Of a DNA stretch of 42,795 bases, positions 1 to 42,795 are shown one piece after another. This DNA is from Reclinomonas americana ATCC 50394 (lineage: Eukaryota), in NCBI GenBank assembly GCA_048213135.1, contig PS015537.1, forward strand, positions 1-42,795, in the 5' to 3' direction. The notes under the pieces were generated by a model that was not told the origin of the DNA, searched no databases, and was given only the letters and a program-made list of their open reading frames with translations. Both the position numbers and the translations under genes were made by a program. Positions within the stretch are counted from its first letter, which is position 1. Every line of letters begins with the position of its first letter.

Positions 1-962
1 AAGCAGCAGCAGCAGCAGCCGCCGCCGCCTGCTGCTCTCGCAGATACTCCTCGATTAGTGCATCCTCCTGCGCCTCCACCGCTGCCTTCTTGTCCAGGTA
101 CTCCTTCCAGATGCGCCGGCGTCGGCCAAAGATCTGTGTGTGTGCGCGAGAGATCCTGGTGAGGGAGAGGGAAAGAGGGAGTACGAAGGGCAAGGGCTGA
201 TCTACCTCTTCTTCCTCTCTTCACTTCTCCCCCATTCTCTTCTTCCTCTTGTTTCTTCCTCTCTTCTCCTCTGACTGCATTCTCTTTCTCTTCTTCTTCT
301 TCTCACTGCATTCACTCTTCTCCTCTGGCTGCATTCTTCGTGCTTGCTGCTTCTCTCCCTCTCTCTTCTTATATCTCTCGCCTTCCTTTCTACTCTCTCT
401 CACTGCGTGAGATGGTGAGGGAGCGAGAGAGAGAGAGAGAAGGAGTGAGAGGGAAAGAGCTAATGCCTTTCTCTCTCTCTCCCCTCTTCTTCTGCTCACC
501 TCTCTCACCTTGTGACTATTCTCTTCGTGCTCTTTCTGCTTCTCCCTCTTCTTCTTCTTCTTCTTCCCTCTTGCTCCTTCTCCCCCTTCTCCCCCTTCTC
601 CCCCTTCCTCCTCCTCTCTCTCTCTCCCTCTCTCTCTGCCTCTTTCCACAGCCTGCATCTGCGTGGAAGATGCAATCTCCGCGGACTTGCTGAATGATTC
701 ACTCACATCAAATGCCGAGTAGAGACCATATCCAAAGCCAACGAAGCTGCCAGCGGCGATAGTGCCAACTGTGTGTGCAAGTGTGTGTGAGAGTGAGAAT
801 GTGTGAGAGAGTGTGCCAAGAGAGAGAGATGCGAAACTGCCGAGCTTGAACAGAATGCCCGTCTGGACAGCTGCGTTGAGGTGAAGGAGTGAGTAAGAGA
901 GTGTGTGTGAGAGAGAGAGAGCAGAGTGTGCACACGAAACGATCGGGTCCAAAGCGGCCCAT
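1..962 (-). CDS. Small single-TM hypothetical protein, multi-exon, 3' end runs off the window
   Basis: Spliced: MGRFGPDP-VQTGILFKLG-IGTIAAGSFVGFGYGLYSAFD-IFGRRRRIWKEYLDKKAAVEAQEDALIEEYLREQQ. Donors at 940 (C|GTTTCG), 837 (A|GTTTCG) and 706 (T|GTGAGT, a 573-nt purine-rich intron ending at 134). No family recognised. Confidence 0.55.
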
Positions 963-1186
963 GGTTGTTGTGTGCAAGAGAATGAGTGTCCTGCAAAGTC
1001 GCAACGTCGCCGGAGTGACAAGCGAGAAAGAAGAGGAAGAACAAGAAGAACTGCAGTTGGCGAGTGAGGCTGTAGCCATGCGTGAGGCTCGTCGACGACG
1101 AGTGCAAGTGGAAGTCAGCGACAACGAAGCGCAGGACATCATCGCACACTCATTCGCTCTCAACTTAACTGCTCTCTCGTTGAGCC

Positions 1187-2305
1187 ATGGCTGTCGAGTT
1201 TCACGGTCGTCGTCTTCACCAACTTGAATGTGATCCGCTGTGCCTTGCCGTCACTCCGGATGGGCAACACCTAATCGCAGGGACGAGTGACAATGATGTG
1301 CTGGTGTGGTCACTGGTGAACGGGGAACAAGTGCGCCGACTGGAGGGACACGCTGATTATGTGTGGTCTGTTGCCGTCACTCCCGATGGTCAGCATGTGG
1401 TGAGCGGGAGTGAGGACAAGACAGTGCGTGTGTGGCTGCTGGCGACTGGTGAACAAGTGCGACGACTGGAGGGACACACTGCCACGGTGCTCTCAGTGAC
1501 CGTCACCCCTGATGGTCAGCGCATCGTGAGCGGAAGTCACGACAAGACAGTGCGGGTGTGGTCGCTGGTGAGCGGAGAAGAGGTGCGACGATGGAAGGGA
1601 CACGCTCAAGGGGTGCATTGTGTCTCCGTCACACCGAATGGTGAGCTCATTGTGAGTAGTGGTGGTATGTATGACAGGAATGTGCGCGTGTGGTCCGTGG
1701 AGAGTGGCGAGGAGCTAGGACTGTTCGTCACGGGTCTTGTGTTCGGGACGTCTTCTGTCGCCGCCACTCCCGATGGACTGTACGTCGTTGGCGGAGGTCT
1801 TGATACCATGGTGCACGTTTGGTCGCTTATCGAGGGAGACGACATTGATGGGCAGCTGTTGAGGGGACACGATAATACCGTGCTCTGTGTGACCGTCACT
1901 TGTGATGGACTGCACATAATTAGCGGAAGCAGTGATAAGACCGTGCGTGTGTGGTCACTGGCGAGTGGTGAGGAAGTCCGGCGGTTGGATGGACATACAG
2001 GGGAGGTGCGGGCTGTCGCCGTCACTCCCGATGGCCAGCACATCGTGAGTGCGAGTGGCGACCTGTCGATCCGACTGTGGTCCACACAACTCGGTGCTGC
2101 CAGGCGCGAACTGCTTACGTCACTGCTGGCGATGCGCACTGTGCAGGGCATGCAGCCGCCGTCCGCTGACGGAGAAAGCGATCGGCGATGTCTGGTGGAG
2201 ATTGTGATGCGATGTTTCATGGTCGAGGAGGCTCAGGTTGTGGTGCACCGGTGTGTGCAAGCTGGTCAGTTTCTCCAGTTGGATGAAGGAAATGTTGACT
2301 GGTGA
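1187..2305 (+). CDS. Intronless WD40-repeat beta-propeller protein (7 repeats, 372 aa)
   Basis: Single ORF with repeated GH...V..V.VTPDG..IVSGS.DKTVRVWSL units, followed by a ~70-aa helical C-terminal tail. Confidence 0.93.
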   Translation: MAVEFHGRRLHQLECDPLCLAVTPDGQHLIAGTSDNDVLVWSLVNGEQVRRLEGHADYVWSVAVTPDGQHVVSGSEDKTVRVWLLATGEQVRRLEGHTATVLSVTVTPDGQRIVSGSHDKTVRVWSLVSGEEVRRWKGHAQGVHCVSVTPNGELIVSSGGMYDRNVRVWSVESGEELGLFVTGLVFGTSSVAATPDGLYVVGGGLDTMVHVWSLIEGDDIDGQLLRGHDNTVLCVTVTCDGLHIISGSSDKTVRVWSLASGEEVRRLDGHTGEVRAVAVTPDGQHIVSASGDLSIRLWSTQLGAARRELLTSLLAMRTVQGMQPPSADGESDRRCLVEIVMRCFMVEEAQVVVHRCVQAGQFLQLDEGNVDW

Positions 2306-2433
2306 CTGCGTCATGACGGTGCTGTTCATCATTGTGTGATGCAGTCGTCTGTGGTCATTGGCATGCCTCGTCTGCGTCTGTCTCTCTTCTTGAGTAAAGA
2401 AAACAACTTATTAGTACTACATTCTCATTTCGA

Positions 2434-4847
2434 TTACATCAAGTCCACCAACATCTTCACGCCCAGATCCCAGTCCACGTTGTCGGGATCCGTCAGCTTG
2501 TACGCGTCGTACCACGACTGGTCGGCCTCAAAGTGCACACCCGACACGGCCACCTTGCCTCCCTTGGTCCCGTAGTTGGTCATCAGCGCCGCAATCGAAC
2601 CGTCCGAGTACTTGCCGTACACGGTGTAGGCCGACGACGGGTAGAAGTAGGGACCCTCCTGGAAGTACACGCTGCGCGCCTTGCTCGTCGGCACCAGCCA
2701 CGTGACGGGGATGACCTGATCGTTGGTGTACTTGACGGGTGTCTTCGTAAAGTAGTCGAGGTCGGCGTTCAGCAGTTCCAGCGCCTTGATGGTGCCGTTG
2801 TCGTCCATCCAGGTGCCGGCCAAGAAGCCGCCCGCGCAGACGCCAAAGTAGCGCTTGCCGCTCGCCACAAAATTCTGCAGGCGCGTCACCACGCTTTTCC
2901 ACTTGCTGGCACCGACGGCGTTGTAGACTTGCATGGTGTCGTCGCCACCAGGCTGCGCGTACACTCGAGCAATGTCGAATGTGGTGGTGGTGGTAGTCGC
3001 CGTCAGGTCGGTCGGACCAACATACTTTGTGGTGTAGCCGGCGCGCTGGAAGAGGGCGGCCAGGGACTCGGCACACCCCGTGCACGCACCGGGGCCTTTG
3101 TAGACGAGAGCAAGTGGAGCAGGGTCCTGCACGATCAGCGCGCGAGAGATGAGCAGCCGCGACGAGTGGGGTCTGGTTTTGCAGAATATTACAGGGACGC
3201 AACTGTGGATTTCACCGAGCACGCTTGACCAGTCCACCCAGAGTTGCAAGTGCAGACGCCTGATGCCGAGCATGAGGCGGTATTGGCTGCCACGCAGAAG
3301 CAGTTGGCACTGCGCACAGAGGTGAAAGATGAGCAAGAGCCAGATGACAAACACGCACAGAGAGAGAGAGAAAGAGACTCAAACTCACCACTTGTTGTTC
3401 TGGCAAAACTGGCCGCTGGTGCACTGCGTGCCGCCGCACACTGGCCCCGTGCCGGGATTCGTGGCGTTGCTCAGCGTGATGCTGAGGTTGTACGCCTGAA
3501 TGCTGAGGGGCGTGGTGGACGACGAGAACACCTTGATGTAGAAGGGGCCCTTGGTGGCGCTGACAACGGCGGCCGGCAGCGTGAAATTGGTCAGCACCTC
3601 GGCCGCTCCCGCCGCGTTGCCATTGACGGTGGCCAGCACAGTTGTACCGTCCGACGACAGGAGGAGGAAGCCGAGGTTGAGCACGTTGGCCGGGTTGTAC
3701 GTGGTGGTGGAGGTGGGGCACGTTCCCTTGGTGGTCGACGGCCCAGAGGACGACGGTCCAGCAGCTGTGGCATACGGTGCGACGCTCGACGGCGCAAGGT
3801 TGATGGTGACAGCGCCCGAGGCGGTGGAGAACTGCGACATAAACACAGAGCGACGGGTTACAAACTGCGCGGGCGAGGTTCAATGGTGGTGATTGCAAAC
3901 CTTGAAATAATCCACGTCCGAAGGCACATCGATGCTGGCGGCGTACGTGTTCGCAGTAGTGCTGGTGGCGAGAGTGCCGAGGGAGGTTGCCGTCGCCACA
4001 GTGTCGTTGTCCTCTGTGTGGTGGAACGGGGAAGGGAATGAGCGACAAGTCACACAACCCTTCTCATTACTCCCCTCCACCACACTCACCATAGTTATCG
4101 CCGTACAGCGACTGCGCCGCAAGAATGTCGTCAAACTGGGGGCCATCAAAGGCCACCGACAGGAACGGCTCCATCAACTTGGTCTGCGAAACGGGGCACA
4201 CATTCGCCAGGCTGCGCAGCGCAAAGGAAGATGAGTGATGAGTTGGACAAGCCAGATCACGCGAGTGAGGAAGCGTGAGATGAAGACGTACCCCAGGTTG
4301 CGTCCGAGTGCCTGCGCCACCACGTTGCGGAAACCGCGGTATGTGTTGCCAGTGGCGGTCGTCGACGCGAACCACGTATCGGTGGCGTCGAGCACAATCT
4401 GTTCACCGCAAGCAGGCACAGAGTGAGAAACACGCAACGCTGCGCACTGCATGCGTGCATGTATGAACGAAACATCGCCACCACTCGTTCCCGGCGGGTA
4501 CGTGAACGCCAGCATGTTATTGTTGCCGTCCAGGGCCTTGGCACCAATGCGAATATCGCCGCGCTTGGTCAGCAAGCCGGGCGAGGTGGGGAACACGGCA
4601 CCATCGTCGTTAGCCTCGTACACAAAGGTGATGCCGGTCTTGGCGCTCCACGCATTGAAGACACTGCGTGAAGGTGGAGGTGAGACAAGCACAGAGTGGA
4701 CGAGAGACAGGGAGACAGAGTGACGGAACGTGGTGAACTGCGCCTGCCAGGTGGCGCGACTGTAAATCGAGTCGAGCCACGCAAAGAGCTTGCTCGGCGC
4801 CGCCTTGTCCGCGCCAGTGGAAAGGACGCTGGGGATGTTGGTGCCCT
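2434..4847 (-). CDS. Fusion of a degenerate matrixin (M10-like, no Zn ligands), a PPC-like beta domain, a Cys-rich/EGF-like segment and a BPL_N (class I glutamine amidotransferase-like) domain; 5' end missing in the gap
   Basis: Exons read EGTNIP...LFAWLDSIY...VFNAWSAKTGITFVYEANDDG...RGDIRIG...GGD|IVLD...FRNVVAQALGRNLG|LANVCPVSQTKLMEPF...GPQFDDILAAQSLYGD, then SIDVPSDVDYFK, then CSASGVCTCNSGWTGQAC. Intron 3203-3127 joins this to DPAPLALVYKGPG...QPGG...YFGVCAGG...SGVHFEA. Confidence 0.8.
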
Positions 4848-5078
4848 CTATAGTGACGCAACACGTGAGCCACAACGACGATCTCTCCTGTTGTCTCGCN
4901 NNNNNNNNNNNNNNNNNNNNNNNNNNNNNNNNNNNNNNNNNNNNNNNNNNNNNNNNNNNNNNNNNNNNNNNNNNNNNNNNNNNNNNNNNNNNNNNNNNNN
5001 NNNNNNNNNNNNNNNNNNNNNNNNNNNNNNNNNNNNNNNNNNNNNNNNNNNNNNNNNNNNNNNNNNNNNNNNNNNNNN

Positions 5079-5106
5079 AGAGAGAGAGAGACACAGAGAC
5101 AGAGAC

Positions 5107-5143
<37 letters not shown>

Positions 5144-5586: not shown

Positions 5587-8097
5587 TTATCTCATGCCGA
5601 GTGTGGTGGTGAGGATGATGGCGCATACGGAGCCGCCGACCAGGCCCAGATTGATGCCAAGTGACTGCATTGCAGGGGGTTGTGAGTTTGTCATAAAGAG
5701 ATCGAAGTCGAGCAATTGCACGAAACGAGGATGATGCCGGCGTGCTCCATGTCTTCCACGGGAAGGTCGCTGGCACCTCGCATTGCGGCCAGTGCTGCAT
5801 TTCGCTTCCCGGTGAGCAGCAGTAGCGAGGGGGACAAGCACATGGGGGATGAGAACGCAACTGTCGAACCAGCCGTTCGAGAAGCCAAAGACAAAGACGA
5901 GGACGATGGGCACGACTGGCGAGGTGATTAGTGGCGGGAGTACGCAGAGGATCAGCAGCGGGATCAGCAGGAAGCGGAGCGACACGCCCACGACGACCAG
6001 GCTGCGCTGTGGCATCCACAGACGACCCGCGGTGAAGCGGCCGGTAAAGTCCATGAAATCCCACACCGACTGCGGTGGGAAGGCGCAGTGAGAAGGCAAG
6101 CTCTTCTATCATCTTCTCTGTTTCCTGTTCTTGTTCTTCTCTCCTCCTCCTGCTATCCTTCTGCTTCTTCTTGCTTTCTTCTTATTCTTCTGCTTCTTCT
6201 TCATCATCATCTTCTCCTCGTTCCTCTACTTCTTTCTTTCCTCTTCTTCTTCTCCTTCTTCTTCTTGTTCTCTCCTTCTCCGTCTTCTTCGTCTTCTCCT
6301 CCTCCTCCTCCTCCTACTTCTTCATCCGTCCTCTTCTTCGCCCCTCTCCTGTCCTCCCTGTACCTTCTCCACCTTTGTCTCCTCCTCCCTTTCCCCTCCT
6401 CCTCTTCCTTCACCTTCTCCTCCTTTGCTTCCTTCTTCTTCTTCCGTCTTCTTCTTCTCCTCTCTTCCTGCCCTCCCCGTGCCTTTTCCACCATTGTCTC
6501 CTCATCCCTTTCCCCTCCTCCTCCTCCTCCTTCTTCTACTTCCTTCTCCTCTTTGCCCTCCTCCTCAGCCGTGGCCGTCTCCTTCTTTGTCTTCTTCTTC
6601 TTCTTCTTCTTCTTCTTCTTCTACTCCTCCTCCTCCTCCCTCCCTCTTCCCCCTTCCCCTCCATCCCTTCTCCTCGATTCCCTTCCACGCACCAGAAGCA
6701 TAATGGGATACCAATCCTCGGCCCAGTTGAAACCCGACGGCACCGCCACCACAATGCCGGGATACACGGTCAGGGAGACGAAATAGCCGAGCAGAATGGC
6801 CAGGAACATGCGCCACATCTTCTTGAACACGCGCCACGTGTCGGAGAACTTGGTGCCGTACTTGCGTCTCGAGGTGGCTGGAGGGGTCGGGCGTTGATGT
6901 GAGCGACACTTCCGCAGAAGCAACATCGGGGCCTTTGTGTGGCAGGCGTACCTGGCGCATTCGGATCGGTGGACGAGCCGTTGGACGAGCTGTTGGGTCT
7001 CGAGGCCGGATCCTCGTCATCGTCGTGGTAGATGAGCACCTTGCCGTCTCCTGCGTTGTTGCCGTGGTACTCGCGCGCCAAGTAGTGCCGTGCAAATGCC
7101 ACATTCGGCAGGCACAGGTACAACACGAGGCAGGTGAAGATGGCGGCGCCGGTGATGGCAAAGTAGATTAGCGACGAGATGCCCTTGTCGAACACGGCCT
7201 TGGTCAGCACTCGAATAATGGCCACCGTCAGGCCAGCCACGCCGGCTCCCGTCAGTGCCGCGCGGGTGTACGTGGGTGGAAATAATGCCGCCAGGCCGAG
7301 TACGGAGGCATTGAGGACGCCGGCGAGGACGCCCAGCACGAAGAGACCGCCGCATGTCAGCCAGAAAGCCAGGTCCTTGGAGTCGAGCAGCAGCGGCCAC
7401 AGTGGCGTCACCAGCACCGTGACCAGTTGCAGCAGGAACGAGACGACAATGCGTGACTTGATGGAGGTGCGTTTGGCGAATAGAATCACGGGGAAGTACA
7501 CCAGGAACCTGCGCGACGTGAGAGGTGAGAGGAGAGCAGGGGAAGCGCGATAGAGTCGCACACAAACCCTCCCTGTCAGAAAGGAACACGGAGTGAGATG
7601 GACGCGGTGGGATGCGTGGAACAATGGCATAAGGACGCAACAATGTTGTAGCTGGTGGCGATGGACTGCACAATGTCGCTCTCGGGTGGAAAGTGGTCTG
7701 CGCGCAAGAAGATGAGAACACGCGCAACGCGAATGATGTAGGCGCCATTCACCTCTCAAGTAGTCCACGGCGGTGATGAAGCTGCGAATCGGGTCAGAAA
7801 CGACGAGCAAAGACAGCAAGGCAACAGGAGATACCAAACCTGTAGAACGGCAACACAAACGTGCCTCCGAGCAGGGTCCTGTGCCATGAGATGAGCTCGA
7901 AACACAACAGACAGCTCCCCTTCCCCTCCCAACGCAACATGCAAATGAGAGTCAAGTTTAGCTGCGTATGCACGCATGAGAAACCACACAGACAACCCTC
8001 CTCACCGCTCACGCGTCACGCAACTCGATCGCGCAGTTCCCCCGCCTTGCCATCCTCCGTCACATGATGCACCTGCGGCACCACCTGATGCATCCCG
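5587..8097 (-). CDS. Equilibrative nucleoside transporter (ENT/SLC29 family), main body; exon 1 probably at 10025-10219 on the mis-oriented contig
   Basis: Spliced ELRDR-LNLTLICM-TLLGGTFVLPFYS-FITAVDYLR matches the ENT N-terminal signature. Also LAALFPPTYTRAALTGAGVAG, FVSLTVYPG, DFTGR, GFSNG and AGIIL-SLGINLGLVGG. Confidence 0.92.
6100..6680. repeat. Intronic polypyrimidine/polypurine (CTT/CCT) low-complexity tract
   Basis: Read directly; lies in an ENT intron. Confidence 0.9.
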
Positions 8098-10219: not shown

Positions 10220-11078
10220 GTGCTTATGTAGACGGTGTANNNNNNNNNNNNNNNNNNNNNNNNNNNNNNNNNNNNNNNNNNNNNNNNNNNNNNNNNNNNN
10301 NNNNNNNNNNNNNNNNNNNNNNNNNNNNNNNNNNNNNNNNNNNNNNNNNNNNNNNNNNNNNNNNNNNNNNNNNNNNNNNNNNNNNNNNNNNNNNNNNNNN
10401 NNNNNNNNNNNNNNNNNNNNNNNNNNNNNNNNNNNNNNNNNNNNNNNNNNNNNNNNNNNNNNNNNNNNNNNNNNNNNNNNNNNNNNNNNNNNNNNNNNNN
10501 NNNNNNNNNNNNNNNNNNNNNNNNNNNNNNNNNNNNNNNNNNNNNNNNNNNNNNNNNNNNNNNNNNNNNNNNNNNNNNNNNNNNNNNNNNNNNNNNNNNN
10601 NNNNNNNNNNNNNNNNNNNNNNNNNNNNNNNNNNNNNNNNNNNNNNNNNNNNNNNNNNNNNNNNNNNNNNNNNNNNNNNNNNNNNNNNNNNNNNNNNNNN
10701 NNNNNNNNNNNNNNNNNNNNNNNNNNNNNNNNNNNNNNNNNNNNNNNNNNNNNNNNNNNNNNNNNNNNNNNNNNNNNNNNNNNNNNNNNNNNNNNNNNNN
10801 NNNNNNNNNNNNNNNNNNNNNNNNNNNNNNNNNNNNNNNNNNNNNNNNNNNNNNNNNNNNNNNNNNNNNNNNNNNNNNNNNNNNNNNNNNNNNNNNNNNN
10901 NNNNNNNNNNNNNNNNNNNNNNNNNNNNNNNNNNNNNNNNNNNNNNNNNCTCTCTCTCTCTCTCCTCCTCCTCCTCCTCCTCCTCCTCCTCCTCCTCCTC
11001 CTCCTCCTCCTCCTCCTCCTCCTCCTCCTCCTCCTCCTCCTCCTCCTCCTCCCTCTCCTGTTGCTGCTCTGCACACAG

Positions 11079-11954
11079 CCCTCCTCGGCAAGGACAAGTG
11101 GCAGCGTCGTTTCGTGCAGGTGCACGAGCATTACATTCTGTACGCGAAGAAGGCGGGCGCGGTGCGTTGTCTTACACCCTTCCCTCTGTCGACCCTCTAT
11201 CGACTCTCAATGGAGATCGCTGACCTTCTCTTGTCTGCGCAACGCAGACGACCCCATCGGGAGTCATTCCGCTGCTGCCCGTCGGCACCGTCAAGGAGTG
11301 CACCAAGACCGAAGGTCGATTCCGCGACTGCTTCGAGGTGGACCAGACGACGGTGGCCGCCTCGCCCAGTGGCGCCACCGGCAGCGCCTCCGCCGTCACC
11401 ATGACGACCACCACGGGATCGTCGTCGCTCTCCGGTCGTGTCGGCAAGAGCCGCTGCTTTGTCGTGCGGTCGCCCATGTCGGTGCTGAAGACGAGAACGG
11501 TGCGCCTCCCCAAGCTACAGTGCCTTGCGTAGCTCGTATCTTGACACTACTCCTAATGCAGGCCATTGTGACCGAGTCCACACTAGACGAGCTGCTGGCC
11601 GTTTCCTGCGCAGGCGGTGACTCGTCGCCACTGCGACCGCACCTGCTCGGCGCCCGATCGTACTACTTCCAGGCGGCCACCGAAGACGAGCGCAAGGAAT
11701 GGGTGTCAGTCATCCGCAACAACCTCAGCATCACTCGAGTTGCGTGCAACAAAAGAACACAAGCTCGTTGTGCTGGGCACTGAACGTCGCCACACTTGCA
11801 GGGTGGTCTGTCACGTGCTGCAGCTGCTGTGCGTCAAGCCATGCAATCCGTGGCCTGTGGCGTGGAGGGCATCAACTGGCAAGCAGTTCTCGACGAGCTG
11901 TACCCACCGGTGGCTCGAGCAGCGCAGTTGGCAAGGCAAAAGGCTGCAACGTAA
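11079..11954 (+). CDS. PH-domain protein, 3' exons
   Basis: LLGKDKWQRRFVQVHEHYILYAKK-TTPSGVIPL...CFEV...RSYYFQAATEDERKEWVSVIR; last intron A|GTTGCG at 11739; stop TAA at 11952-11954. Confidence 0.85.
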
Positions 11955-27600: not shown

Positions 27601-29899
27601 TTAGAGCTCATAATATTCCTTGTGAAGGTCGAATCTGGCTAATGATGTGGAGTGCGCCCAACATCTTCGCTGCACGTCCAACAGGAGATCTACGGGTCCG
27701 CACGCGATGACTCCTATTCTCTTGTTCTGGAAATGTCTGGCGCGCTCGGCAACAATCGCGAACAGTGTGTCCCAGTGTGGACGACCGCTGTGCACTGGCA
27801 CTGGGTACGACTCGGCTGTTCCACAAACACAATGAGAGGAGACAGCAACTGAGCTTTTGTAGCACAGGGGAACGCAACATTTGGAACGCTCCACGCCCTT
27901 GGTGATGTAGATCTCGGCTGTCGACAATAGAATGCGACTTGTGAGCGCTCAATGCCTTGGATACTGCTGATCTCTCTTCACATACCTTGGACACAGTCAT
28001 CGCTGCGCGCCGCCTCCTCAAAGTGCTCGGGAAACAAGTCGAGTGCCTATCAAGGAGTCAGCCAACAGACGCGCCGACACACGCGTGTACGGAGCGCACG
28101 CACCGATGCATCCCTCGTGACCCACACCAGATGCGTACGATGGTGCATAGCAAACTCGGCACGTGCCTCGGCCGAGCGCTCCGCCCACTGCACCATGTAG
28201 GTGAAGATAGACATGACGTGCGTGATGCCGATGCCGCCAGCAATCACAAACAAGTCCGGATATCGCTTGAAGGGAATGGAGAGATGGCCGTACGGTCCAT
28301 CCATCCACACGGTGACGTTCTGCGTTGCACATCTTAGCATGAAGACGAAGGCACCGGCAACAGCGCAAGTACAGGCACGCTCACCGACACGCGGTGACCG
28401 CTCGACAGAGGAACCATTTCGGCGGCGCTCTCATCGTTCTCTGCACTCTCGGTCAGCTCGACGAGCCGGTGCGTCCACGTGTTGGGACCCATATCCTGCA
28501 CGACAGGGTGAGTACGAGGCCAGATTCTATGGCAAAGTGCACTCAATGTACCTTGATGTAAAACACCAGTGACGGCGATCGACTCCGTGCATCGGGACAC
28601 GAGGCAATGGAAAAGGGGTGCGAGGAGAAGACGGAGATTTGTGGGACCGAGAGATACGCAAACTGGCCTGGTTCCACACGGAACAGCTCGCCGTCTCGTC
28701 GAAACAGTTCCTGCGACGAAGATGGTGAGTCTCAAAAAAACATCCAATATTAACACCAACATATATCTGACCACTCGAACGATTCCGCCGCCGACTGGCA
28801 CCAGTGACACGCTCGCATCGTATTTCAGCAACCACCCGAGCAGGTAGCGGAACACATGGTCGGCCAGCATCAGCGCGGCGCCCTGTTGCCCAACGATGAG
28901 AGAGAGTCATCAAGCAAAGTGAAGAACATCGGGACCAACACACACACCGGAATCATGAGGAGACCAGTGGTGGGCTCATGGATGGTCGCCATGACCAATC
29001 CTGCAATGCCGATGCTCATGTGCGGGTACTGGAACACCTCCCACGCCTTGCGACGAATCGGCTGCCACGCCAGCACGCTCATCGTGAGGAAGCAGCACCA
29101 CGCTGTGGGAGGTGCGAGTCAGGGGAAGGAGCGAGAATGTCATTCGCGACGAAAGCGCACCAAGCAAGCCGGCCAGTGGTGCAGGCGTGCCGTCGTCTGC
29201 ATTCACGTTAGCAGAGAGCACACAAGATTCAAGCTCACACAGGAAGCCACGCAACAGCTCCACTCAAACATGCGCTGCAATCCGCCCGTGGCAATGCTCG
29301 CACACACTCCATGCACAATGGCCAGCGACACGAAGAAACGAGCAATCCTGCATGCACTGTGAGTGAACCAGGAGGGCGCTACTTACTTTGCATGCCCCCA
29401 CGTACTCACCACCGATGCCAGCGCACAGCACGCTGAAACGACACACCAAACATCGGCACCAGCACCGACCGCCTCGTGACCGGCACCAGCAGAATCACCA
29501 AGTTGAGGCGATTGACAGCTCCCAGCAGCATAAACACGGCGCGGAACGTGTCATCCGTGTCAAGCTGAGGACGAGCGCGCGTGTGTGTGATGGATACACA
29601 CGAGCAGCATGCAAGCCACACCATCGACCGACCTCATCATACGCAGCATACCACGACACCGCAAACAGCACCAAATACATGAGCACCAACAGCGCCTCGC
29701 CCACGGTCAAATCGACCACCCAGTGCACGCCAAGCCATCGCCACGCCGACTGCGCACTCGGCATCTTGCCGAGTCTCCGGTACAAGACAAAGCCGGAGAG
29801 CGACGAGTGCAGTGGGCGCGGGGAGTTGCGGAAGATCACCGCGGCCGCGAACACAATGCCCATGCACACACCACCGACGATCCACTGAGTGGGAGAGAG

Positions 29900-29935
<36 letters not shown>

Positions 29936-32392: not shown

Positions 32393-35146
32393 ACTCTCTG
32401 CCCATTGCGTTTGTGAGTGTCTGAGAGAAAGAGAGAGAACAGAAAGCTGTCTGCCACGTGTCTATGCGCTCTCTCTTCTCTCTGCTGATTCGTGGCATGC
32501 ATGCATGTGCTGCGCAGGATGACTGGTCGGCATCGAAGGTTGACTGTCATTCTTCTTTGCCTTCTTCTTGCATCGCCTCATCGGTATCTGTTCTTGCATT
32601 TTTCGTTCGTTGTTTCTTTCTTCATTCGCAGGTTGGCGAGTTGTCGCGCGAGGTGGCGCATCTGCAGTCGCTGTTGCAGATCAAGGAGCGCGAGTTGAAC
32701 GAGCATCGACAGGCGGTGGCCAAGGCGATGACGGCGAGCAGCGAGAAGAGCGCGTTGTCGCCGGTGCAGGTCGTTGCGGAGATCTTGGCGTCGGCGGTGT
32801 GCGACTCGCCCGACTTGCCGTCGATGGAGGTGGCGCATGCGCGCGTGTTGTATAGTTCATGTGGGTGTCTCGTTGTGCTGAGTGTGCGGTGCAGATGTCG
32901 TGGCGTGAGGCGGCGCGTTTGCAGGCGGCGTCGGAGCTAAAGGACGATCTGTCGTTTGCGATGCGCACGGTGTTGCGGTTGGATTCTGGCGCCGGTCTGA
33001 GGGACAAGTGGCCGGTGACGCTGCTGACGGTGGCCGACGATGAGGATGCGACGAGTGGGATGTTCACGGCCACGCTGCTGTCGATGATCTCCAGCACGCG
33101 CAGTGGCATGTGGCGCATGGTGGTGTCGCTGGGCAATCACGTCAGCGAAATCACGTCCTCCCACGGTACTCCGCTGCTGCGTGCCGACAATCTGGTGCAC
33201 GAAACCGGCGGTGCTGTGCCCTTTTTTGCAGACGATGTTCTCGGACGGCGTCGCCGTGCGGTTGTCAAGTATGGCAGCGTGGCTGCAATGCTGGAACGCG
33301 GCATCGATGTGATCTACGCTGCGCCGGGTGTGGTGTTTGGTGCCAAGCATCCCCTCTCTGGCATGTCGTTTGACCACGATTTTGAGGGTGCGTGTCGCTG
33401 TATGAAGCCCTTTTTTGGTCGCGGACTCATCACCACATTGTGTGCAGTTATGAGCACGGCACAAACCAAGGAGATGGTGAACGGCACCTTTGAGTTCAAG
33501 GACGATGCGCCGTTCCTGACACCCATGTATGGCGATGTGGCGCTCTTTGACCCGGCGTTCTTCTATGTGCGATCGAATCCGCGTACGGCCAAGGCGCGTC
33601 CATGTGTTGACCTTGCCTCCCGCTCTCTCTGTTTCTCACGTTGCGACTCACGCGTGGCGATGGTGTGCAGCTGATGCGCCTCGTTCAAGATCGTCTCACC
33701 CGCGAGAATGTGGACGAAGATGTGGTGTTCACTGAGGCGCTGCTGCGACCGGCGTCGCCGCGCCATCCTCGCTACCCGCGCGTGTCGGTGCACATTCTCG
33801 ATTCACTCACCTACACCACCTCGGTGCGGTACACGACAGACCCGGAGGCCAAGGGCTCCCCCAAGCCGACAGTGATACACTGTGGCCAGATGCATCGGAA
33901 GATGCGATCGTACGCTGAGTGCGTGCTCACGCAGTACAAGGCGCTCGATGCGCGGCGGGCGAGTGCGTGGACGGGCTTCCCGGCGATTCCCGCCACGGCG
34001 CCGCTGCCGTCACCAGAGGAGGTGCGTCGCAAGCTGGATGTGAACACGTGTCGCAAGAGTTTGCCGGACGATGTGCCGGCCGAGGATGTGGACTTGGTGC
34101 AGGCGCTGGCCAAGAACGCGTCGGAGCAGCGCGACGTGTTTGTGACCATGGCGAATGCGAATGTGCTGGGCGAAAAGTACGGCGGCACGGGCGAGCCCAT
34201 GCTGCCTCTGTGGGTCGACTCGGCGCGACATGCTGGTACGTCGCAGGTTGACACCCCTTGACATGTTTGTCTCTCTCATTCTTCGTTCTCCGCTGCAGGC
34301 GTGAACAACATCCTGGTGCTGGCACTCGACGACACCGCCGCCGACTACTGCCGGCGCAACAAGGTGGGTTATGCGCGACTGGAGCCGCCAGACATCAAGG
34401 GCTACTCGGTGCCGAACCAGCGCGTGTCGGCGTTCAAGTGGGCCCTGCTGCGACGCATCATTCGTGCCGGCTACAATCCGCTGCTCTCCGACACGGACAT
34501 TCTGATCTTCCGCAATCCATTCGAGCTCCTCGTGCGCGACAGCGACGTGGAGAGCTCCACCGACGGCTGGACCGACGACACGGCGTACGGTGAAGTGGTG
34601 CACTACCAGGGTGACTCTGGTCCGACGCCATCACTGCCACTCGGCTCCGCCTTCCGCCTCTACATGCTCAACGCCGGCTTTTTCTATCTGCGCGCCTCGC
34701 CCTCTGTCCTCGAGGTGCGCGTTACTTCCCTCACTTTCTCTCTCTCTCTTGTGTGTTGGTGCGTCACTCACTCGCCGGCAATGCAGATCGTGTCGTGGAT
34801 TGCCGATGACTTGCGCAAGCACGCCAAGTGGGACCAGAAAGCCTACAACGAAGCGCTGCAGAGGCGCACGTACGGCAAGGTGCACGCACCGCGTCTGTCG
34901 GTCCGCGTTATGGATCGCGCGCTGTTTGCGACCAGCAAGGTGTATCTGCGACGAGAAATGTGGGGCCGGCATATTGCGCCCGCGGTGGTGCACCAGAATT
35001 ATGTCGGGCCCGACTACTTTGATGGCAAGCCGTTCGGGCGTGACCCGAAGACCACTATTTTGCGGTTTATCGCTGAGGAGCACGACCGCGAGGTCAAGTC
35101 ACAGGAGAAGGCACAACTAGAGCTGGCGCGGTTGCAGATCAACTAG
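31160..35146 (+). CDS. Type II Golgi glycosyltransferase of the nucleotide-diphospho-sugar transferase/GT77 (RRA-like) family, with two tandem GT domains
   Basis: N-terminal TM and coiled stem. Domain 2 reads KWALLRRIIRAGYNPLLSDTDILIFRNPFELLVRDSDVESSTDG...NAGFFYLR...WDQKAYNE. Domain 1 is degenerate (FFYVRSNPRT present, no DxD). Confidence 0.87.
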
Positions 35147-35183: not shown

Positions 35184-37239
35184 TTACATTAATACCACGT
35201 CGTTGGCGCCGGCGAGTAATGCCAGCGTCGGCTGCTCGAGGTGAGAAAAGCGAGCGGATGCCTAAACAGAGGGAAGAGGAAAACGCACGCAACTCGGTGA
35301 AAGTGCGCGTAGTACGGTGATTCACGGTACCGCAGGTACGAGTCGGTTTTCTGTGCCGAGGAGCGTCAGGCGTTTTGTGCGCAAAGTGTGTGTGCATGGG
35401 TGGCACACCATGAGGTAGGCCACACTGTTGTAAGCGGCCACAAACGGAGTCAGAAGGTCGCTCGGTCTCGTGCTCGATGGATTCTGCGTGCGAGAGAGCG
35501 ATGAGCTGAAGAGATGGCGGAGGAGACAGAGGCGCTTCTCTCGCGCAACAATGGGAACTACCGCCATGGCAGCGGCGCGCTCTCGGGCTGAAATATTAAG
35601 CGAGTGCGCTCCCTCACTGTCGATAAACTCGGCACGCACTTCTGCACAGCGGTCGGCCGTCTCCTTGGTCGACAGTCGCCCACGCTCCTGCAAAGAATAA
35701 TGGAATTAGAACATCACGTCACAGCAGGCCGACTGACACACAACAGCGCACCACGTCCAGTCGCAGCGTGGTGATGATTTCGTAGAACAGCAGGTTCTCT
35801 GTGAAGCACGCGCAGCGGTGAATGGAAGCCGCGATGGATCACACGATACTGCACACACCTTCCGAAGCCTCGTCGCGCAAAAAGCTCAAGAACGCCTGCT
35901 TCTCTTTCGGATCCCCGACTGTGCGCTCAAACGAGCTGTCGAGCAACGCAGCCGACGCGAAACCGTCGCGCGGGCGCATGGCAAACAGAATCAACAAGTG
36001 CGGCATGAGATCGGNNNNNNNNNNNNNNNNNNNNNNNNNNNNNNNNNNNNNNNNNNNNNNNNNNNNNNNNNNNNNNNNNNNNNNNNNNNNNNNNNNNNNN
36101 NNNNNNNNNNNNNNNNNNNNNNNNNNNNNNNNNNNNNNNNNNNNNNNNNNNNNNNNNNNNNNNNNNNNNNNNNNNNNNNNNNNNNNNNNNNNNNNNNNNN
36201 NNNNNNNNNNNNNNNNNNNNNNNNNNNNNNNNNNNNNNNNNNNNNNNNNNNNNNNNNNNNNNNAAGGAGGGGGGAGAGGGTGGAGGAGAATCACCGTCAC
36301 ACGCAACTCGCATCAAGAGACTGGTGGTCGAGTCCACTGCACCAGACTTGCGCACCTGATAGAGCTGTCTCACAAGCATTGCAGGAATGACGACTGCCAC
36401 CCCCAGCAACACCACGTTGCCCTTGAGAAACACGACAGTATGAGCCATTCGTCGCAAGCTGTGTGCGCAGCAGGAATGAAGAAACAACTGACCACCACAA
36501 ACAAGGAGAATCCGCCGAGATTGTTGTTCAGGCGCACCACCGGCACCAGCGACACCCACATGAGTCCGGCCGCGGCCAGAGCTGCACCCACCAGCGTGAT
36601 CGCCAACAGCAGGCGCTCCTTCTTCGCTGAGTAGTCCGCCAGTCGTCTCAACAAGCGAACATAGACCCACACTGCGCAAGAATGAGGGAGAAGCCACCAC
36701 AGACTGTCGTCGCGATCACTCAACTGGCATAGGTGACTGTCAGCACCTGTGTGATGTTGGCCACCAGCGTGGTCCATCTTCCCGATTGGATGGCGTGCTC
36801 GGAGCACAAGAACCCATTGGTTGTGGTCGACAGAATGAAGAACCACGCAGAAACGACTGTGTGATGCATGAGAGAGTGTGTGAGTCAGTGTGAGAGAGGC
36901 ACGCTCACTCACTCACTCACCGATGCAGTGCGAGGCGCCCGCGAACCAAAACACGACTGTCGACATGGTGAATGCAACCCACAGCATGCGCAGTGTGAAT
37001 CGCAGAGATGATCGCCACCAGGAGCCGCCTTGTTGTTTCCTCTTGGTGTGCTTGTGTGCACTCATCGTCTCGCCCTTGTCGTTGTCAGTGTCGTCATGAT
37101 GGTTGTTGTCGTCGTGAGGAAGGCGACGAACGACTGTGAAGACATCGACGATCCAACGTGCGAGATCGGCGGCGCCCACTAATAGGTAGAGAATGCCATC
37201 CACGAGGAACACGATTGTCGACACCTGGTCGCATTGCAT
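35184..37239 (-). CDS. 7TM-RGS protein, paralog 1 (one exon lies in the gap)
   Basis: Several TM helices, then AFLSFLRDEAS-ENLLFY...AEFIDSEGAHSLNIS...AYNSVAYLM-KTDSYLRY, ending PTLALLAGANDVVLM*. Confidence 0.82.
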
Positions 37240-37344
37240 CGCGCAAACACAGTCAAAAGGCCTCAAAAGGTGTGTCCTGTGAGAAACTGATTGCTGCGAG
37301 CGGACATGCATGATTAACAGGATTGTACATTCATTACAAGGGAA

Positions 37345-40300
37345 CTAGAGCACAACGCCAGCAGTGCCGGCGAGTAATGCGATTGTGGGCTGCGAGTGTG
37401 GGGTATGAGTGAGGACGAATGGAAAGAACAGGCGAGAGGAACGCAACTCTGTGATAGTGCGCAAACTGATCGGACTGGCGCCAGCGTGGGAAGCAGTCGG
37501 TCTTCATCAGGTACGAGACGCTGGTGTAGGCGCGCTCGAATGGGCGTAGCATGTCGGATGTTGATACACCGGGTCGATCCGACTGCAAGGTAGTGAGCAA
37601 CAATAGGCAAACAAAGACGATGGGGTGATAATGACGCACCACATCGGTCATGGCAAGTTCGCGATCGCGTGCGGCAATGTTGATCGACGACTCGCCGTCG
37701 GGTGAAATATACGTGTCGCGGATCTTACGGCAGCGTGCTGCGACGTCGGAGAGCGTCACTCGGCTCTTGGCCTGCGACGAAGGAGACGAGGAGGAGAATG
37801 GGGTTTAGTTGGGTGCTGTTAAACAGAGCAGGGAGAGAGAAACCCGCAGCGACGCACAATATCTTCGCGCAGTTCATCCACTGCCATACGGAACAGCAGG
37901 TTTTCTGTGCGGCAGAGGGAGGTAAGTTGTGAGCACAGTGCAAGAGGGGTACAGTCTCCACACCTTGTGCCATCTCGTCGGCGAGGAACCCGAGAAAGGC
38001 CTGCAAGCACCAACAGCGTGAGTGCACAGACGATCCCTGACACAGCGATGACGGGCAACTCCGAACCTGTCGCTCGTCTTTGACAGCCATCATCTCCTCA
38101 AATGAAGAGTCCAACAGCGCCGACTGCTTCACCGAGTCACTCGGACGCAGCACGAAGAGCATGATGACGTGCGGAAGCCAGTCGCCGACCAAGAACATTG
38201 ACGTGGAGGTGGGCATGGACTGCGAATGCTTGCGGATTGAGTGGTGGATGAAGAACATGACACACAAGTGGGTCGAGAAACGCAACTTTCTTCCACTGCA
38301 CCGTCGCCAGAATGAGCATGAACGTGATAGACACGGTCAGCAGGGTGGTCGATAGGGCTTGCTGCAGCGCAACGGGAGTCAGTCAAGGAGAAAGGCGGAG
38401 AAGGAGAGCGGATGGAGAGAGAGAGAGAGAGGTAGAAAGGGAGAAAAGAGAGAGAGGGAGACACTCCCATGAAGCAGCAAGACAACAACGGATGACAACG
38501 CACGCGACAGGAAGAACGGAACGATTTCCGTAGAATGGATGCCATAAACAAGCGGCAAGAAGACAACAACAGACGACATCTCGACATATAGAGCTTTCAC
38601 TCCTGTCTGACAGAGAGGATGAGATCCCACGTGACGAAGAAGCGATATCACAGAATTGATGCCATCCACACGCGGTAAGAAGACAAGAATGGGTGACAGA
38701 GATGCCATTCCACGCAGCAGGAAGAAGTGAACACCAACTCAATGCCCACATAATAGATGCCATCCATGTGCGGCAAGAAGAGTAGAACAGATGCCATTCT
38801 CCGAATGACAGAAACGCCCGTTCCTATCTAACAGACAGGAAGACAACCCACGCGGAATAACGATGAACACCAACTCAATGCCCACAGAAGGGATGCCATC
38901 CACACGCGGCAAGAAGCCAAGAGCGGATGCCATTTTCAGGCACCAGAAAGACGAGAACACTCATTCTCCTACGACACAGCAGCAAGACAAGAGACACGCT
39001 TTGAACACCATCATTCCCTGCCAACGAACCCTCAGCACAGCCTTATCACCAACGCGCAGGCGGCCTTGTCGATGCAACCGCAACATGCTGACCAGCGAAC
39101 TGATCGGCGCCAGCAACGACACCAGCAACAGCGCACCATAACCCTGTCACATCCACCATCAGTTTCCGAACAAGAACCCCACCACTTCCTTCGCCTCTGC
39201 CCTCCCCATCGCAACTGCAATCAACAACGAGTACATGACCGGCTGGTGATCCAAGTCCGGGTACGCATCCTGAATGAGATAGGAGCCCCCGATAGCAGCC
39301 GCCACCAACGCCAGTGCCACCAGCACCGAGGCCGCACGAGCGACTCTCACCGACAGCGGCACGAGTACCACCGCCAATCGCAGGTACACAAAGAGCTGGA
39401 GCGAGAAGTTGATGAGGAGAATGATCTGGCCCACCAGCAGCATGATCACCATCCAGTTCTGAATGCCCGCCCATCCGTTGCTGGCGTCGTTGCAGTCGAA
39501 GATCGAGGCAGTGCCTGCTCCGTAGGCCGTCATGACTGTGGCGCGAGAATGAGAAGGGGGGAGGGGGAGGAGGAGGGGGAGGAGAAGGGAGAGGAAGGCA
39601 GGGTAAGGAGAGGAGAATGTGAGAGGATGAAAGACACAGTGACGAAGGCGAGGGAGATGGAAGGGAGGAGAGAGGAATGGGGGCAGGGATGAAGACATGA
39701 AGAGAGACATAGAGACACTTGTGGTTAAGGATCTAACGGGCGTGAGACGCGAAGATTGAGGAAATACGAAGGCGGAGAGGAATGAGAGGAAAGATGCGGT
39801 AACAGACACAGTGATGAAGGCGAGTACGGATGAAGACATGAAGACAAGAGAGTGATACACTCATGGTTAAGATTCTGAACACAGTCATGACTGCAACGCG
39901 GGCGGGAGAAGCGAAGAAAGAAGAAAGAGAAAATAGGAAGGCGGAGAGGAATGAGAGGTGGGGAAGAGAGGACACAGTTGCTGAGGAAGAGGAGAGAGGA
40001 AGGGAAGGAGGGGATGAAGACGAGAGAGGGGGGCACAGCTGCAGTCAGTCGTCACTGCGTGATGGAGAGGGTGAGAGGAAGGGAAGAGAGCGACGATAAC
40101 AACAGACGGAGGCACAGCTGCAGTCATCAGTTGATACAGGCACAACGCAGATGTGAGGGAGAGGGAAGGGAGGAGAGAGGAGAATGCTGGAAAGAGGAGA
40201 CTTGGCATCAGTGCATCAAAGGATCGACGCAAATCCTCACTGCAGAGCACAAGGGAGAACAGAGCAACAGGAGAGAGAGTACTCTGCAATCACTCCCTCC

Positions 40301-40604
40301 GCTTCCCCCTTGCACTTTGCTCTCTCTCTCCCTCTTCTCTCTCTCATCTCATCTCCCTCTCATCTCCCCCCTCACCAACACAATGTATAGTCCCAAGGAA
40401 CCAGAACGCAGACGTAGGCAGCGTCACAACCACCACACACAGTCGACGAAAACGGCCTCCGCATGAACGACTTTCCGTGCGAGTGGTCCCCCTTTGCCAC
40501 GCCTTGTACACATCAAAGATCCAGCGCAAGAGCAGACAGGCCGCAGTCGTGCTGTAGACCACTGCACAGAGAATGAGAAGCCCTTCGTCTCCGCACACGC
40601 CCAT
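37345..40604 (-). CDS. 7TM-RGS protein, paralog 2
   Basis: Exon 1 MGVCGD...RWIFDV...FWFLGTIHCV is homologous to paralog 1. RGS domain AFLGFLADEMAQENLLF...TYISPDGESSINI...LMKTDCFPRW; C-terminus PTIALLAGTAGVVL*. Confidence 0.82.
38450..38960. repeat. Degenerate intronic tandem repeat (core GATGCCATCCACACGCGGCAAGAAG)
   Basis: Core copies near 38538, 38658, 38756 and 38892; TGAACACCAACTCAATGCCCACA near 38728 and 38864. Confidence 0.7.
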
Positions 40605-40744
40605 TCGAAAGACGATCTTCGGAGGACACACAGGAGACGGAGGACGTCTTGTCAACTAAAAGTTTGTTCTTTGCTTTATGGTGCAAGGATGATGTAGGTA
40701 GGGATTGGTGGGGGAAAAAAGAATAGGATTGGGAATGGGGAGCA

Positions 40745-42795
40745 TCAGAACACTTCGGGACCGTCGAAATCGTCGTCCTCGCCGTAGTTCGGGCCCTTGA
40801 AGATGTCAAAGGAGTGGCTGCTAAGCTGTGGTCTTACAACTGATGGGCTGCGTGAGCCGGCAGCGGCGCCTGCGCCATCGGCGGCGGCGGCAGCAGCAGG
40901 TTGTTTCCTGGCGGCGCGTTCCTGGGCGGCTGCGCGCTGTGTGGTGACCAGTGCTTGAATGCGGCTAAAGGAGGCCTCCGCGTCGTCCATCTGCGTGCCT
41001 TGCTTCGTCAACAGGCGCAGCACCTCGGGCTGGAAACCCGTGAGGAACAGATCGAGGCCTTGTCGGTCACTGGTCGGGTCGGCGGTCTTCTTGTTGCCGT
41101 AGCCGTGCAGGTCAATGACGGTCTGTGTACCAGCGGATGAGCACAAGAGTCACCAGTGAGCCCAACACGAGGACGCGTGCACATACGCACCAGCTTCATG
41201 TTGGGATTGACGTGAGCACGATAGAACTGGATCGCCGCTCGAACATCTTCGTCTGCCGTCAGCGCCGTGTCGGTGAGGAAGATCAAGTAGTCAATCATTC
41301 GATCGGTGGTGACGGACTCCTGTAAATCGACAACAATCAGCACGGGGAGGGGAACCACTGACGATGTTCTGCGAATACAACGAACCCGAATGAACTGGAA
41401 CGGGAAGCTGGTTCCGAGGCCGAGCGCACAGTTCACAGCCGAGGCCTTGCTGATAATGTCTTCGGCATCCCGCATCACATCTTCACCTGCATTGTGTTCG
41501 AACACAGTCAGTTCATGATGCAAGATGCGCGAGCGACGGAAAAACAACGCAACGGTGCTCGGGGAAGACGACCTCCTCATCGCAGCGCTGACCCGCCACC
41601 TTTGGAGAGGAAAAGATGCGCACTTCGCGAGAGTCTTCCGGTGACGAATTGCGAATCATGGCAGCCAGTACGGCAGCCGCGCTCAGCAGCGTCTTGGTGT
41701 TGGTGTAGTTGACTGCCTTGTTGCGTTCGAATGTCGCGCATGGGGCTCGCATAGAACCCGACACATCGACAAAGACGACCACGGAGCCCATCAGCGGCTC
41801 CATCGTCGCACGGCCGACCACTTCGAGGGCCTGGCTCAGGCTGCTCTTGTACTCCTGCACCACCTCCAGGGTGGGCACCACCTTCGGATAGGCCAATCGC
41901 TTGTCCCACGGGTCCGCCTTGGCCACGGCGGCGCCGACACGGTTCCTGCGCTCCGCAAGCATGTTTTCTCGCATCGCTCTCCGCTGTCGGCGCAGATAGT
42001 TCCACCGTTCGACCGCGTTGAGGCCACTCACTTGGCCGTGCTTCTCTTGCCACTGCGACCAAAGGAAATGAGCACGTTCAACGAGAAACGCAAGGATCAT
42101 CAGCAAAAGAACACACAAACCAGTCTCAGTCGAGCTTCAGGGACGGAAATCGCTTGACTCGAGCTCGAAAGTGTATTGGTTGACAGTTTGGCCTTGGCAA
42201 TGCGTTCGCGGTCGCGCAGCAACTCGCACACACGCTGGTGGTGCTCGGGGGAGATGCCGGCCTCGATAAACAAGCGCAAATGTCGCACAAGCATCACGTA
42301 CGACCGATACCGGTGATTGTCGATGCTGCAACGAGGCCATGAATATAGGGGAGCGAAAAATGAACACGCATACAAGGCCGCGTACGCAACGCATACTCAA
42401 ACGTCTCGGCCACCGGGCCGCGCTGCGACATGAGCGACACGGGTGTCTCGTACGGCGCCAAGCGCAACCGTGTGCCCACAAGTCTGGGGTCGAACTCGCC
42501 GGTGAAGCCGAGCTGTGACGGGATGAGGAGAGAGATATGAAAGAGGCAAAGGGGAGGAGTGAGAGAGGAAACACGAGACGGAGGCAAGATAAGAGACAAG
42601 GAAACAGGAGAGCACAAAAGGACTCACTGGTGCACGATTGAGGCGAGATGTGCGGGAGGGAGAGAGGGAAACAAAAGCGGATGTACGAAAGCAGGCAATA
42701 GGGGAGAGACTAGCGCAGGTGACTTCGCGATGCACACACAGATGAGGAGAAATGAGCGGAGATAAGAGAGGGGAAAAGCGGACGTACTCAAGTAA
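40745..42795 (-). CDS. TROVE plus vWA protein of the TEP1/ciliate p80 type; 5' end lies outside the window
   Basis: GFTGEFDPRLVGTRLRLAPYET...SYVMLVRHLRLFIEAGISPEHHQRV resembles the TEP1 TROVE segment. vWA MIDAS motif VFVDVSGSM, then LIFLTD and VIDLHGYG. Confidence 0.8.

Follow-up and report, generated by a model that had tools for sequence, protein, structure and literature searches.

The window analysed here is the whole stretch of 42,795 nucleotides (positions 1 to 42,795, forward strand) of contig PS015537.1 from Reclinomonas americana ATCC 50394 (GenBank assembly GCA_048213135.1). It is an intron-dense eukaryotic locus of about 58% G+C, interrupted by six N gaps, and carries among others a CASP gene, a THADA gene and two paralogous RING + TPM genes (Table 1). 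The subject of this report is the 5′ splice sites (donors) of its introns, which fall into two classes tied, in this window, to the last base of the preceding exon (position −1). In class N (normal donors) a final exonic G is followed by an intron beginning GTNNG(T), while in class S (shifted donors) the last exon base is A, C or T and the intron begins GTT[G/T]CG(T). The bases flanking class S donors resemble those flanking class N donors displaced by one base. The study comprises this one window and every intron is a prediction; a slash marks the boundary between exon and intron.

Intron annotation across the locus

Gene strands were set by Pfam matches on stop-to-stop reading frames. Gene finders based on GT/AG ends and coding potential (GT only; coding scored by codons or by a 3-periodic Markov model; a branch filter present or absent) read through or misplaced most THADA introns, even when trained on THADA. 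Because these motif-neutral gene finders failed, we confined the donor model to +3 to +8 of the intron. Introns were called with a Viterbi-trained model which combines a two-component donor matrix over these positions with an acceptor matrix, coding scores and a term for length. Since the donor term sees only +3 to +8 of the intron, it is blind to the exon base. Three runs are compared: run D was seeded with 25 hand-read THADA introns, run E with a flat donor score and 45 acceptors taken from a 3′ pattern, without hand-read introns, and in run F a learned branch-site term was added. Class counts cover introns no longer than 130 nt on the strand assigned by Pfam (113 of 120 in run D, 113 of 125 in run E and 112 of 123 in run F). 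These exon-blind counts are the primary result and are uncorrected for miscalls found later.

Several candidate sites were rejected. A model intron at 11951 is a false fusion across the stop codon between two genes, whereas the model donors 14290 and 14867 correspond to the correct donors G/GTGCGC at 14277, with a CTGAC branch, and G/GTTTTT at 14852, the latter by continuity of the CASP_C profile. In THADA, G/GTTTCC at 26084 was discarded since, with a good acceptor, only C/GTGCGT at 26059 is frame-compatible. The spacing between the TAA of the gene upstream of CASP (11951-11953) and the CASP ATG (12033) is only about 80 nt. THADA intron 27 (26349-26413) may be of the GC-AG type (G/GCATGT, 65 nt), with a GT donor, T/GTCGCC at 26355 (59 nt), as the alternative; both keep the frame.

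Two donor classes and the last exon base

Donor type and −1 base are associated in all three runs. In run D, donors of the form GTT[GT]CG follow A in 15 cases, C in 9, T in 11 and G in 2, and GTNNG donors follow G in 47, C in 3, T in 3 and A in none, the remaining donors being distributed as A3, C6, G6 and T8 (Fisher p = 1.7e-11 for donor type against −1 base). Run E gives 35 non-G and 2 G for GTT[GT]CG, 50 G and 5 non-G for GTNNG, and 16 non-G and 5 G for the rest (p = 2.7e-12); the corresponding counts in run F are 34 and 2, 50 and 6, and 15 and 5 (p = 5.6e-12). A sequence-only reading of the window had claimed that the donor register follows the −1 base, and the three exon-blind annotations bear this out. 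It had also proposed a contingency test of the −1 base against G at +5 or +6. On the predicted introns of the window (run F), 45 donors with G at +5 only and 4 with G at +6 only are found after G, against 4 and 39 after other bases (p = 8.9e-17).

Class S accounts for 36 of the 112 short introns called in run F, about a third, and 38 distinct GTT[GT]CG donors are called in at least one run. They are present in 10 of the 11 intron-containing gene regions, the glycosyltransferase gene alone having none. T occupies +3 in 41 of 55 non-G donors and in 13 of 57 G donors. The two groups also differ in uniformity: 28 GTTGCG and 6 GTTTCG donors occur among the 55 that follow a base other than G, and 28 different hexamers among the 57 that follow G, 11 of these 57 donors containing GTGCG. 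In GTT..G donors after non-G, +5 is C in 34 of 37 cases and A in 2; a GTTGAG donor, which is the better match to canonical U1, is seen twice.

An annotation-free control points the same way. GTTGCG hexamers number 52 on the sense and 11 on the antisense strand, with about 35 expected on both together. Among the 30 sense GTTGCGT heptamers, 27 are called as donors, one is intronic (4438), two (4862 and 36307) adjoin N gaps and none lies within a called exon. The two at 4862 (−) and 36307 (−) border the gaps at 4900-5078 and 36015-36263, and from their sequence look like donors whose partner exon or acceptor fell in the gap. For the normal pattern, G precedes 37 of the 45 sense GTNNGT sequences called as donors, 23 of the 186 sense copies not called and 24 of the 160 antisense copies.

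Exact junctions were checked by scanning single exons against Pfam and comparing profile coordinates across each intron. Across the shifted donor at 24106 (T/GTTGCG) the DUF2428 profile passes from 177 to 178 with no gap, and at 16397 (C/GTTGCG) and 18245 (T/GTTGCG) the TPM profile reads 82, one split codon, 84. For normal donors, the DUF2428 profile passes from 147 to 148 across 23955 and CASP_C from 105 to 106 across 14457; CASP_C also passes from 197 to 198 across 14852, a donor after G. The curated CASP chain forms an intact open reading frame of 754 aa (stop at 15200-15202) with a C-terminal hydrophobic segment, in agreement with the ten G donors and four non-G GTTGCG donors that the sequence-only reading had listed for this gene. 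In THADA, the first 25 hand-read introns leave a reading frame with no stops and the full chains reach a stop at 27581; two donors previously considered ambiguous, 24502 and 24683, are called as A/GTTGCG in all three runs.

The two RING + TPM genes, A and B, are tandem paralogues with a signal/TPM (MOLO1-like) domain, a membrane segment and a RING-H2 finger. Their donors at 16397 (C/) and 18245 (T/) occupy the same alignment column and phase and are both shifted, with different −1 bases. Those at 16791 (GTTGCG) and 18698 (GTTGAG) lie two columns apart, in the same phase, within a poorly aligned stretch, and likely mark a shared intron position with a shifted-type donor in both genes. The other intron positions are not common to both paralogues. 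At 18478 (−) in gene B, a 73-nt intron (C/GTGGCGTG) is predicted where gene A reads through, at a three-residue insertion in the alignment. Possible explanations are an error of the model and an intron specific to this paralogue.

Such results could in principle be an artefact, the GTTGCG donors arising either from motif-driven intron picking or as copies of one inserted element. The introns are predictions, the model learns the motif and then prefers it, and frame alone does not fix the donors, since two THADA introns admit 396 frame-preserving combinations of donor and acceptor. Yet the exon base, which the model does not see, separates the classes, and run E converges on the same result without hand-read seeds. 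Over-called sites would show the background frequency of G at −1 (27-34%) and not 5%. Together with the strand asymmetry of the hexamer and the exact profile continuity at three class S junctions, the exon-blind runs lead us to reject a pure picking artefact. With regard to copies, the best matches in an all-against-all blastn comparison of 90 introns are CT/CA low-complexity stretches of 15-20 nt that also occur in normal introns. Class S introns are alike only in their signals and are therefore not copies of one element, and an introner or transposon-derived family was rejected. Overall, we consider an artefact of either kind very improbable.

In other respects class S introns appear to be ordinary. 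All 38 distinct class S introns have GT...AG ends, are 55-82 nt long and carry CTSAC-like motifs. The two classes have similar median lengths (65 nt for S and 66 nt for N), phases (16/13/7 and 25/18/12) and proportions of CAG acceptors (34 of 37 and 47 of 53), and CTSAC-like branch motifs are common to both, the learned branch consensus being TCTCACT (run F). Judged by their ends, their branch-like motif and the restored frame, class S introns would thus qualify as U2-type GT-AG spliceosomal introns. U12-type introns are characterized by an extended /RTATCCTT donor and a TCCTTAAC-like branch site; this type was rejected here, as class S donors are GTT[GT]CG and their branch motifs CTSAC-like as in class N.

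Table 1. Gene regions of the window and the donors called in them. Base before the slash, last exon base; positions under "after G" are donors that follow an exon-final G.
Gene region	Extent	Strand	Basis	Shifted or shifted-like donors	Other donors
Unnamed gene, 3′ part	1..1150	−	introns called in runs D, E, F	940 C/GTTTCG, 837 A/GTTTCG (runs D, E, F)	exception: 706 T/GTGAGT, 304-nt intron
WD40 gene, intronless, 372 aa	1187-2302	+	Pfam		
BPL_N/EGF-domain gene	2400..4899	−	Pfam and predicted introns	4473 T/GTTTCG, 3203 A/GTTGCG	normal, after G: 4291, 4089, 3900, 3388
Nucleoside transporter gene	5587..8097	−	PF01733 matches	GTTGCG: 8024 A/, 7938 T/, 7641 T/, 5861 A/; 5726 C/GTTTCG (all in runs D, E, F)	
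Short gene upstream of CASP, TAA at 11951-11953	10950..11953	+		11739 A/GTTGCG	normal: 11500 G/GTGCGC
CASP gene, 14 introns	12033..15202	+	curated chain	four non-G, all GTTGCGT: 12974 T/, 13314 T/, 14160 C/, 15031 T/	ten after G: 12130, 12300, 12467, 12814, 13531, 13736, 13983, 14277, 14457, 14852
RING + TPM gene A	15252..16996	−	Pfam, predicted introns	GTTGCG: 16791 C/, 16397 C/, 16040 A/	normal, after G: 15643, 15481
RING + TPM gene B, paralogue of A	17124..18847	−	52% identity to A	GTTGCG: 18245 T/, 17722 C/, 17461 A/; shifted-like: 18698 C/GTTGAGTG	
THADA gene, 32 introns	20549..27581	+	hand-read and model introns	nine after non-G: 21609 C/, 22093 A/, 22758 T/, 24106 T/, 24383 A/, 24502 A/, 24683 A/, 26485 A/, 27083 T/; two after G: 22583 GTTTCG, 26661 GTTGCG	one normal after C: 26059 C/GTGCGT
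Ferric reductase/NOX-like gene	27604..29935	−	Pfam and predicted introns	29255 T/GTTGCG, 27878 T/GTTGCG	seven after G
Nucleotide-diphospho-sugar transferase (glycosyltransferase) gene	32400..35146	+	Pfam	no GTT[GT]CG donor	after G: 32539, 32830, 33388, 34236; uncertain: 33606 (T/GTTGACCT), 34721
RGS-domain gene region	36264..42795	−	Pfam and predicted introns	GTTGCG: 42390 C/, 41553 C/, 39215 A/, 38286 A/, 37447 A/ (37447 in run D only); shifted-like: 36724 A/GTTGAGTG	exception: 37857 T/GTGCGT

Some further features of the locus may be mentioned. The WD40 gene has no introns, though in its neighbours they recur about every 150-200 nt. Its product best matches generic WD40 proteins, mostly metagenomic ones, at no more than 53% identity, and the protein database search gave neither a self-match nor a close paralogue. 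When a THADA exon and a transporter exon served as protein-search queries, neither an annotated protein of the locus nor a relative was found, and none of the 309 pattern matches from a metagenome scan with the latter exon was a relative. Long microsatellite-like GA/GT/CT tracts are present at 5079-5390, flanking an N gap, and at 160-700, filling the 304-nt intron at 706; CT/CA runs also occur in several introns.

A one-base displacement of the donor pattern

When scored with the normal-class matrix (−3 to +7), class S donors reach +3.5 bits at shift +1 and −7.9, −10.3 and −21.2 bits at shifts 0, −1 and +2, respectively, normal donors scoring 8.9 bits in their own matrix. As in a +1 shifted register, class S donors match the donor pattern better one base downstream. 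The individual positions behave accordingly on both sides of the junction. Base composition at −1 in class S (A14 T11 C9 G2) is like that at −2 in normal donors (A19 T18 C11 G7; chi-square p = 0.68) and unlike that at normal −1 (p = 4.7e-14). Likewise S −2 compares with normal −3 (p = 0.65), S +7 with normal +6 (p = 0.17) and S +8 with normal +7 (p = 0.70, all chi-square). G is found at S −1 in 2 of 36 donors against a coding background of 27-34% (p = 5e-5 to 1e-3), and phase-0 class S donors have an exon-final A in 8 of 16 cases, while A makes up 10.5% of third codon positions. Since the class S flanks match normal flanks displaced by one base on both sides, a one-base register shift is supported, and the sequence statistics fit such a shifted register best.

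The sequence-only reading had fitted both classes to one hexamer, G-K-TGCG. This describes class S and the strongest normal subset but, with GTGCG contained in so few of the G donors, not normal donors generally; the common core is G-K-T-N-N-G-T. The extra T at +3 of class S moves the conserved G-T from +5/+6 to +6/+7. In the mechanism we favour, the donor reader, most probably the 5′ end of the small nuclear RNA (snRNA) U1, would bind both classes through G-K-U-N-N-G-U, whose first G would be the last base of the exon in class N and the first base of the intron in class S. Cleavage would then be set at the first GU by later steps (U5/U6). In class S a mismatched U would occupy the slot that holds G+1 in class N, a loss presumably offset by the near-invariant [G/U]-C-G-U downstream, and the invariant C suggests a reader with G opposite, such as a U1 bearing G at position 5. 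We infer that the reader is U1, that the shared G pairs with its C9 and that its 5′ end is non-canonical. On balance, we lean slightly towards this explanation as a whole: two classes with one motif, read by U1 in registers one base apart.

A different geometry would leave +1G paired with C8 and +2U with A7 as usual, bulge one U (+2/+3), pair +4 to +7 with U1 positions 6 to 3 and place the −1 base opposite C9. Such bulged sites are listed in human (68 predicted and 54 curated for the +2/+3 register in the available part of Tan et al. 2016, PMC4856993, Table 3). The intron-side displacement, by which S +7/+8 resemble normal +6/+7, is predicted by a bulge as well, and 3-5 of the 36 class S donors fold in this way in duplex predictions. 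The exon side distinguishes the two geometries: with a bulge, G at −1 should help by pairing with C9, yet it is depleted, and the class S bases at −1 and −2 are like those at normal −2 and −3 and not −1 and −2. Displacement on the exon side is predicted by the shifted register and not by a +2/+3 bulge, and we regard bulging as an unlikely account of class S.

Nor need there be any register shift, if contacts on the exon side (the final G with U5 loop 1) and on the intron side (the U6 ACAGA box or proteins) compensate for each other and class S is simply the intron-side optimum. Non-G donors are indeed the more constrained group, one hexamer accounting for 28 of 55. The known AG//GU and //GURAG classes, with a −1G/+5G "seesaw" linkage, provide a precedent in plants and animals, as described in the accessible text of Parker et al. 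2022 (PMC9803359). The known form of this compensation, however, keeps G at +5 when the exon G is absent, whereas the non-G donors of run F predominantly carry G at +6 only. In addition, displacement on the exon side is unexpected for readers anchored at the cleavage site, and the pairing scheme of the U6 ACAGA box offers no obvious partner for a C at +5. Compensation of this kind thus seems improbable as the explanation.

Several observations weigh against the shifted-register mechanism or limit its reach. With an assumed canonical U1 5′ end, not the organism's own, the modelled class S duplexes have a mean energy of −1.6 kcal/mol against −6.7 for normal donors, and of the 36, 12 are predicted to pair +6G with C4, one is fully shifted and three are bulged. 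At S +5, where C is near-invariant, the base favoured by canonical U1 would be A. An apusomonad and a prasinophyte with C at +4 keep a standard U1, according to the available part of a preprint (10.1101/2022.06.08.495308). GTTGCG hexamers not called as donors also rarely follow G (3 of 37), which makes the baseline for the depletion of G uncertain. The rule is not absolute, since three normal donors follow other bases (C/GTGCGT at 26059, T/GTGCGT at 37857 and T/GTGAGT at 706) and two shifted donors follow G (G/GTTTCG at 22583 and G/GTTGCG at 26661). Four of these five exceptions had already been noted in the sequence-only reading and are reproduced; 26059 had been missed. About 20 of the 112 calls (those outside the two patterns) are noisy, at least three being wrong on inspection (11951, 14290 and 14867), and many further noisy calls offer an in-frame G/GT alternative. 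Finally, all introns are predictions from a single window of 42.8 kb.

The proposal that intron G+1 replaces exon G−1 in U1 pairing, also made in the sequence-only reading, therefore agrees with the one-base displacement on both sides but not with the weak canonical-U1 duplexes and the unexpected C at +5. This invariant C in turn suggests a non-canonical U1 or another reader. A hypothetical U1 5′ end with G at position 5, likewise assumed for modelling, is predicted to pair +6G with C4 in 33 of 36 class S donors (17 shifted and 5 bulged), with a mean of −5.4 kcal/mol. A U1 with G at this position is described for Mastigamoeba balamuthi in the available part of the same preprint. The normal donors of run D, too, prefer G at +3 (28 against 9 with A) and a pyrimidine at +4 (T 21 and C 19 against A 11), the opposite of complementarity to canonical U1 ACUUAC, a hint that the 5′ end of U1 is non-canonical or that these positions are weakly constrained.

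It is also conceivable that a second, variant U1 complementary to GUUGCGU reads class S in the canonical register. This would account for the sharply defined motif and its invariant C at +5, and atypical donors with co-varying U1 5′ ends occur elsewhere (ACAAAC in Entamoeba, ACGUAC in Mastigamoeba; available part of preprint 10.1101/2022.06.08.495308). The two-sided match of the flanks at shift +1 would then be a coincidence, and a scan of the window with Rfam at gathering thresholds gave no match to any family, hence no snRNA, U1 included, that would support it directly. We judge a second U1 of this sort to be quite unlikely.

Significance and relation to known donor registers

Our search of Creative-Commons PMC papers and bioRxiv, which leaves subscription papers and supplements outside, turned up no account of donors of the GTTGCG type, nor of any lineage rich in shifted donors. 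Conditional on RNA and genome-wide confirmation, the novelty would lie in a known mechanism that serves an unprecedented proportion of donors by one simple rule. As a tentative extension, plausible but in our view not quite to be expected, the +1 shifted register could be a rule-governed major class throughout the organism. It would comprise about a third or more of introns, apply whenever the exon lacks a final G through the motif G-K-U-K-C-G-U, and involve a co-evolved U1 with G opposite the conserved C and cleavage set separately at the first GU.

If this holds, the organism would be the first known to use recognition in a non-canonical register as a main mode of splicing and not as a rarity, and would offer a natural system of many introns in which 5′ splice sites are recognized one base apart from the bond that is cleaved. 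The U1 5′ end of the organism would be predicted to bear G opposite the conserved C. Gene finders with a single donor matrix would misplace many introns here; in our own annotation the exon-blind model miscalled several normal donors and the shifted donors were the easiest to find. The question also bears on the constraint that splicing places on the exon-final G and hence on coding sequence at exon ends; the sequence-only reading had proposed, as an evolutionary consequence, that introns may be freed from the exonic G requirement. The separation of recognition from cleavage has so far been studied mainly in a few human sites and minigenes. The original work on the human +1 shifted register, cited by Tan et al. 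2016, reportedly dates from 2009.

Among known systems, the Archamoebae, whose U1 5′ ends have co-evolved with atypical donors, share with the window a pyrimidine at +4, and a U1 with G at position 5 might also suit the C-rich slot seen here; the available part of the preprint (10.1101/2022.06.08.495308) describes a single donor class in each species and no register shift. The AG//GU and //GURAG classes are similarly split by the exon-final G, the intron side being stronger without it. According to the accessible text of Parker et al. 2022 (PMC9803359), however, the known intron-side class keeps G at +5, while that of the window has an inserted U and G at +6, and the normal donors of the window bear both −1G and +5G.

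Parallels are also found in human cells, where shifted and +2/+3-bulged U1 registers are established and validated non-canonical registers together make up 3119 of 201,541 sites, or 1.5% (available text of Tan et al. 2016, PMC4856993). The bulged +2/+3 register shares with class S the GUU start and the downstream pairing displaced by one base, but in the window the displacement extends to the exon side and G is avoided at −1, neither of which a bulge predicts; in human the register has 54-68 sites. Class S resembles the human +1 shifted register, as presented in the same text, in that the cleaved GU lies one position downstream of the usual C8/A7 pairing, that +1G replaces −1G with the conserved G at +6 and not at +5, and that recognition and cleavage are uncoupled. 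The human example ACA/GUCAAGUAUA forms a long continuous helix, whereas the motif of the window has C at +5 and only weak predicted pairing with canonical U1. The human +1 shifted register is also rare, while here the shifted donors make up about a third of those called and are almost fully tied to the −1 base.

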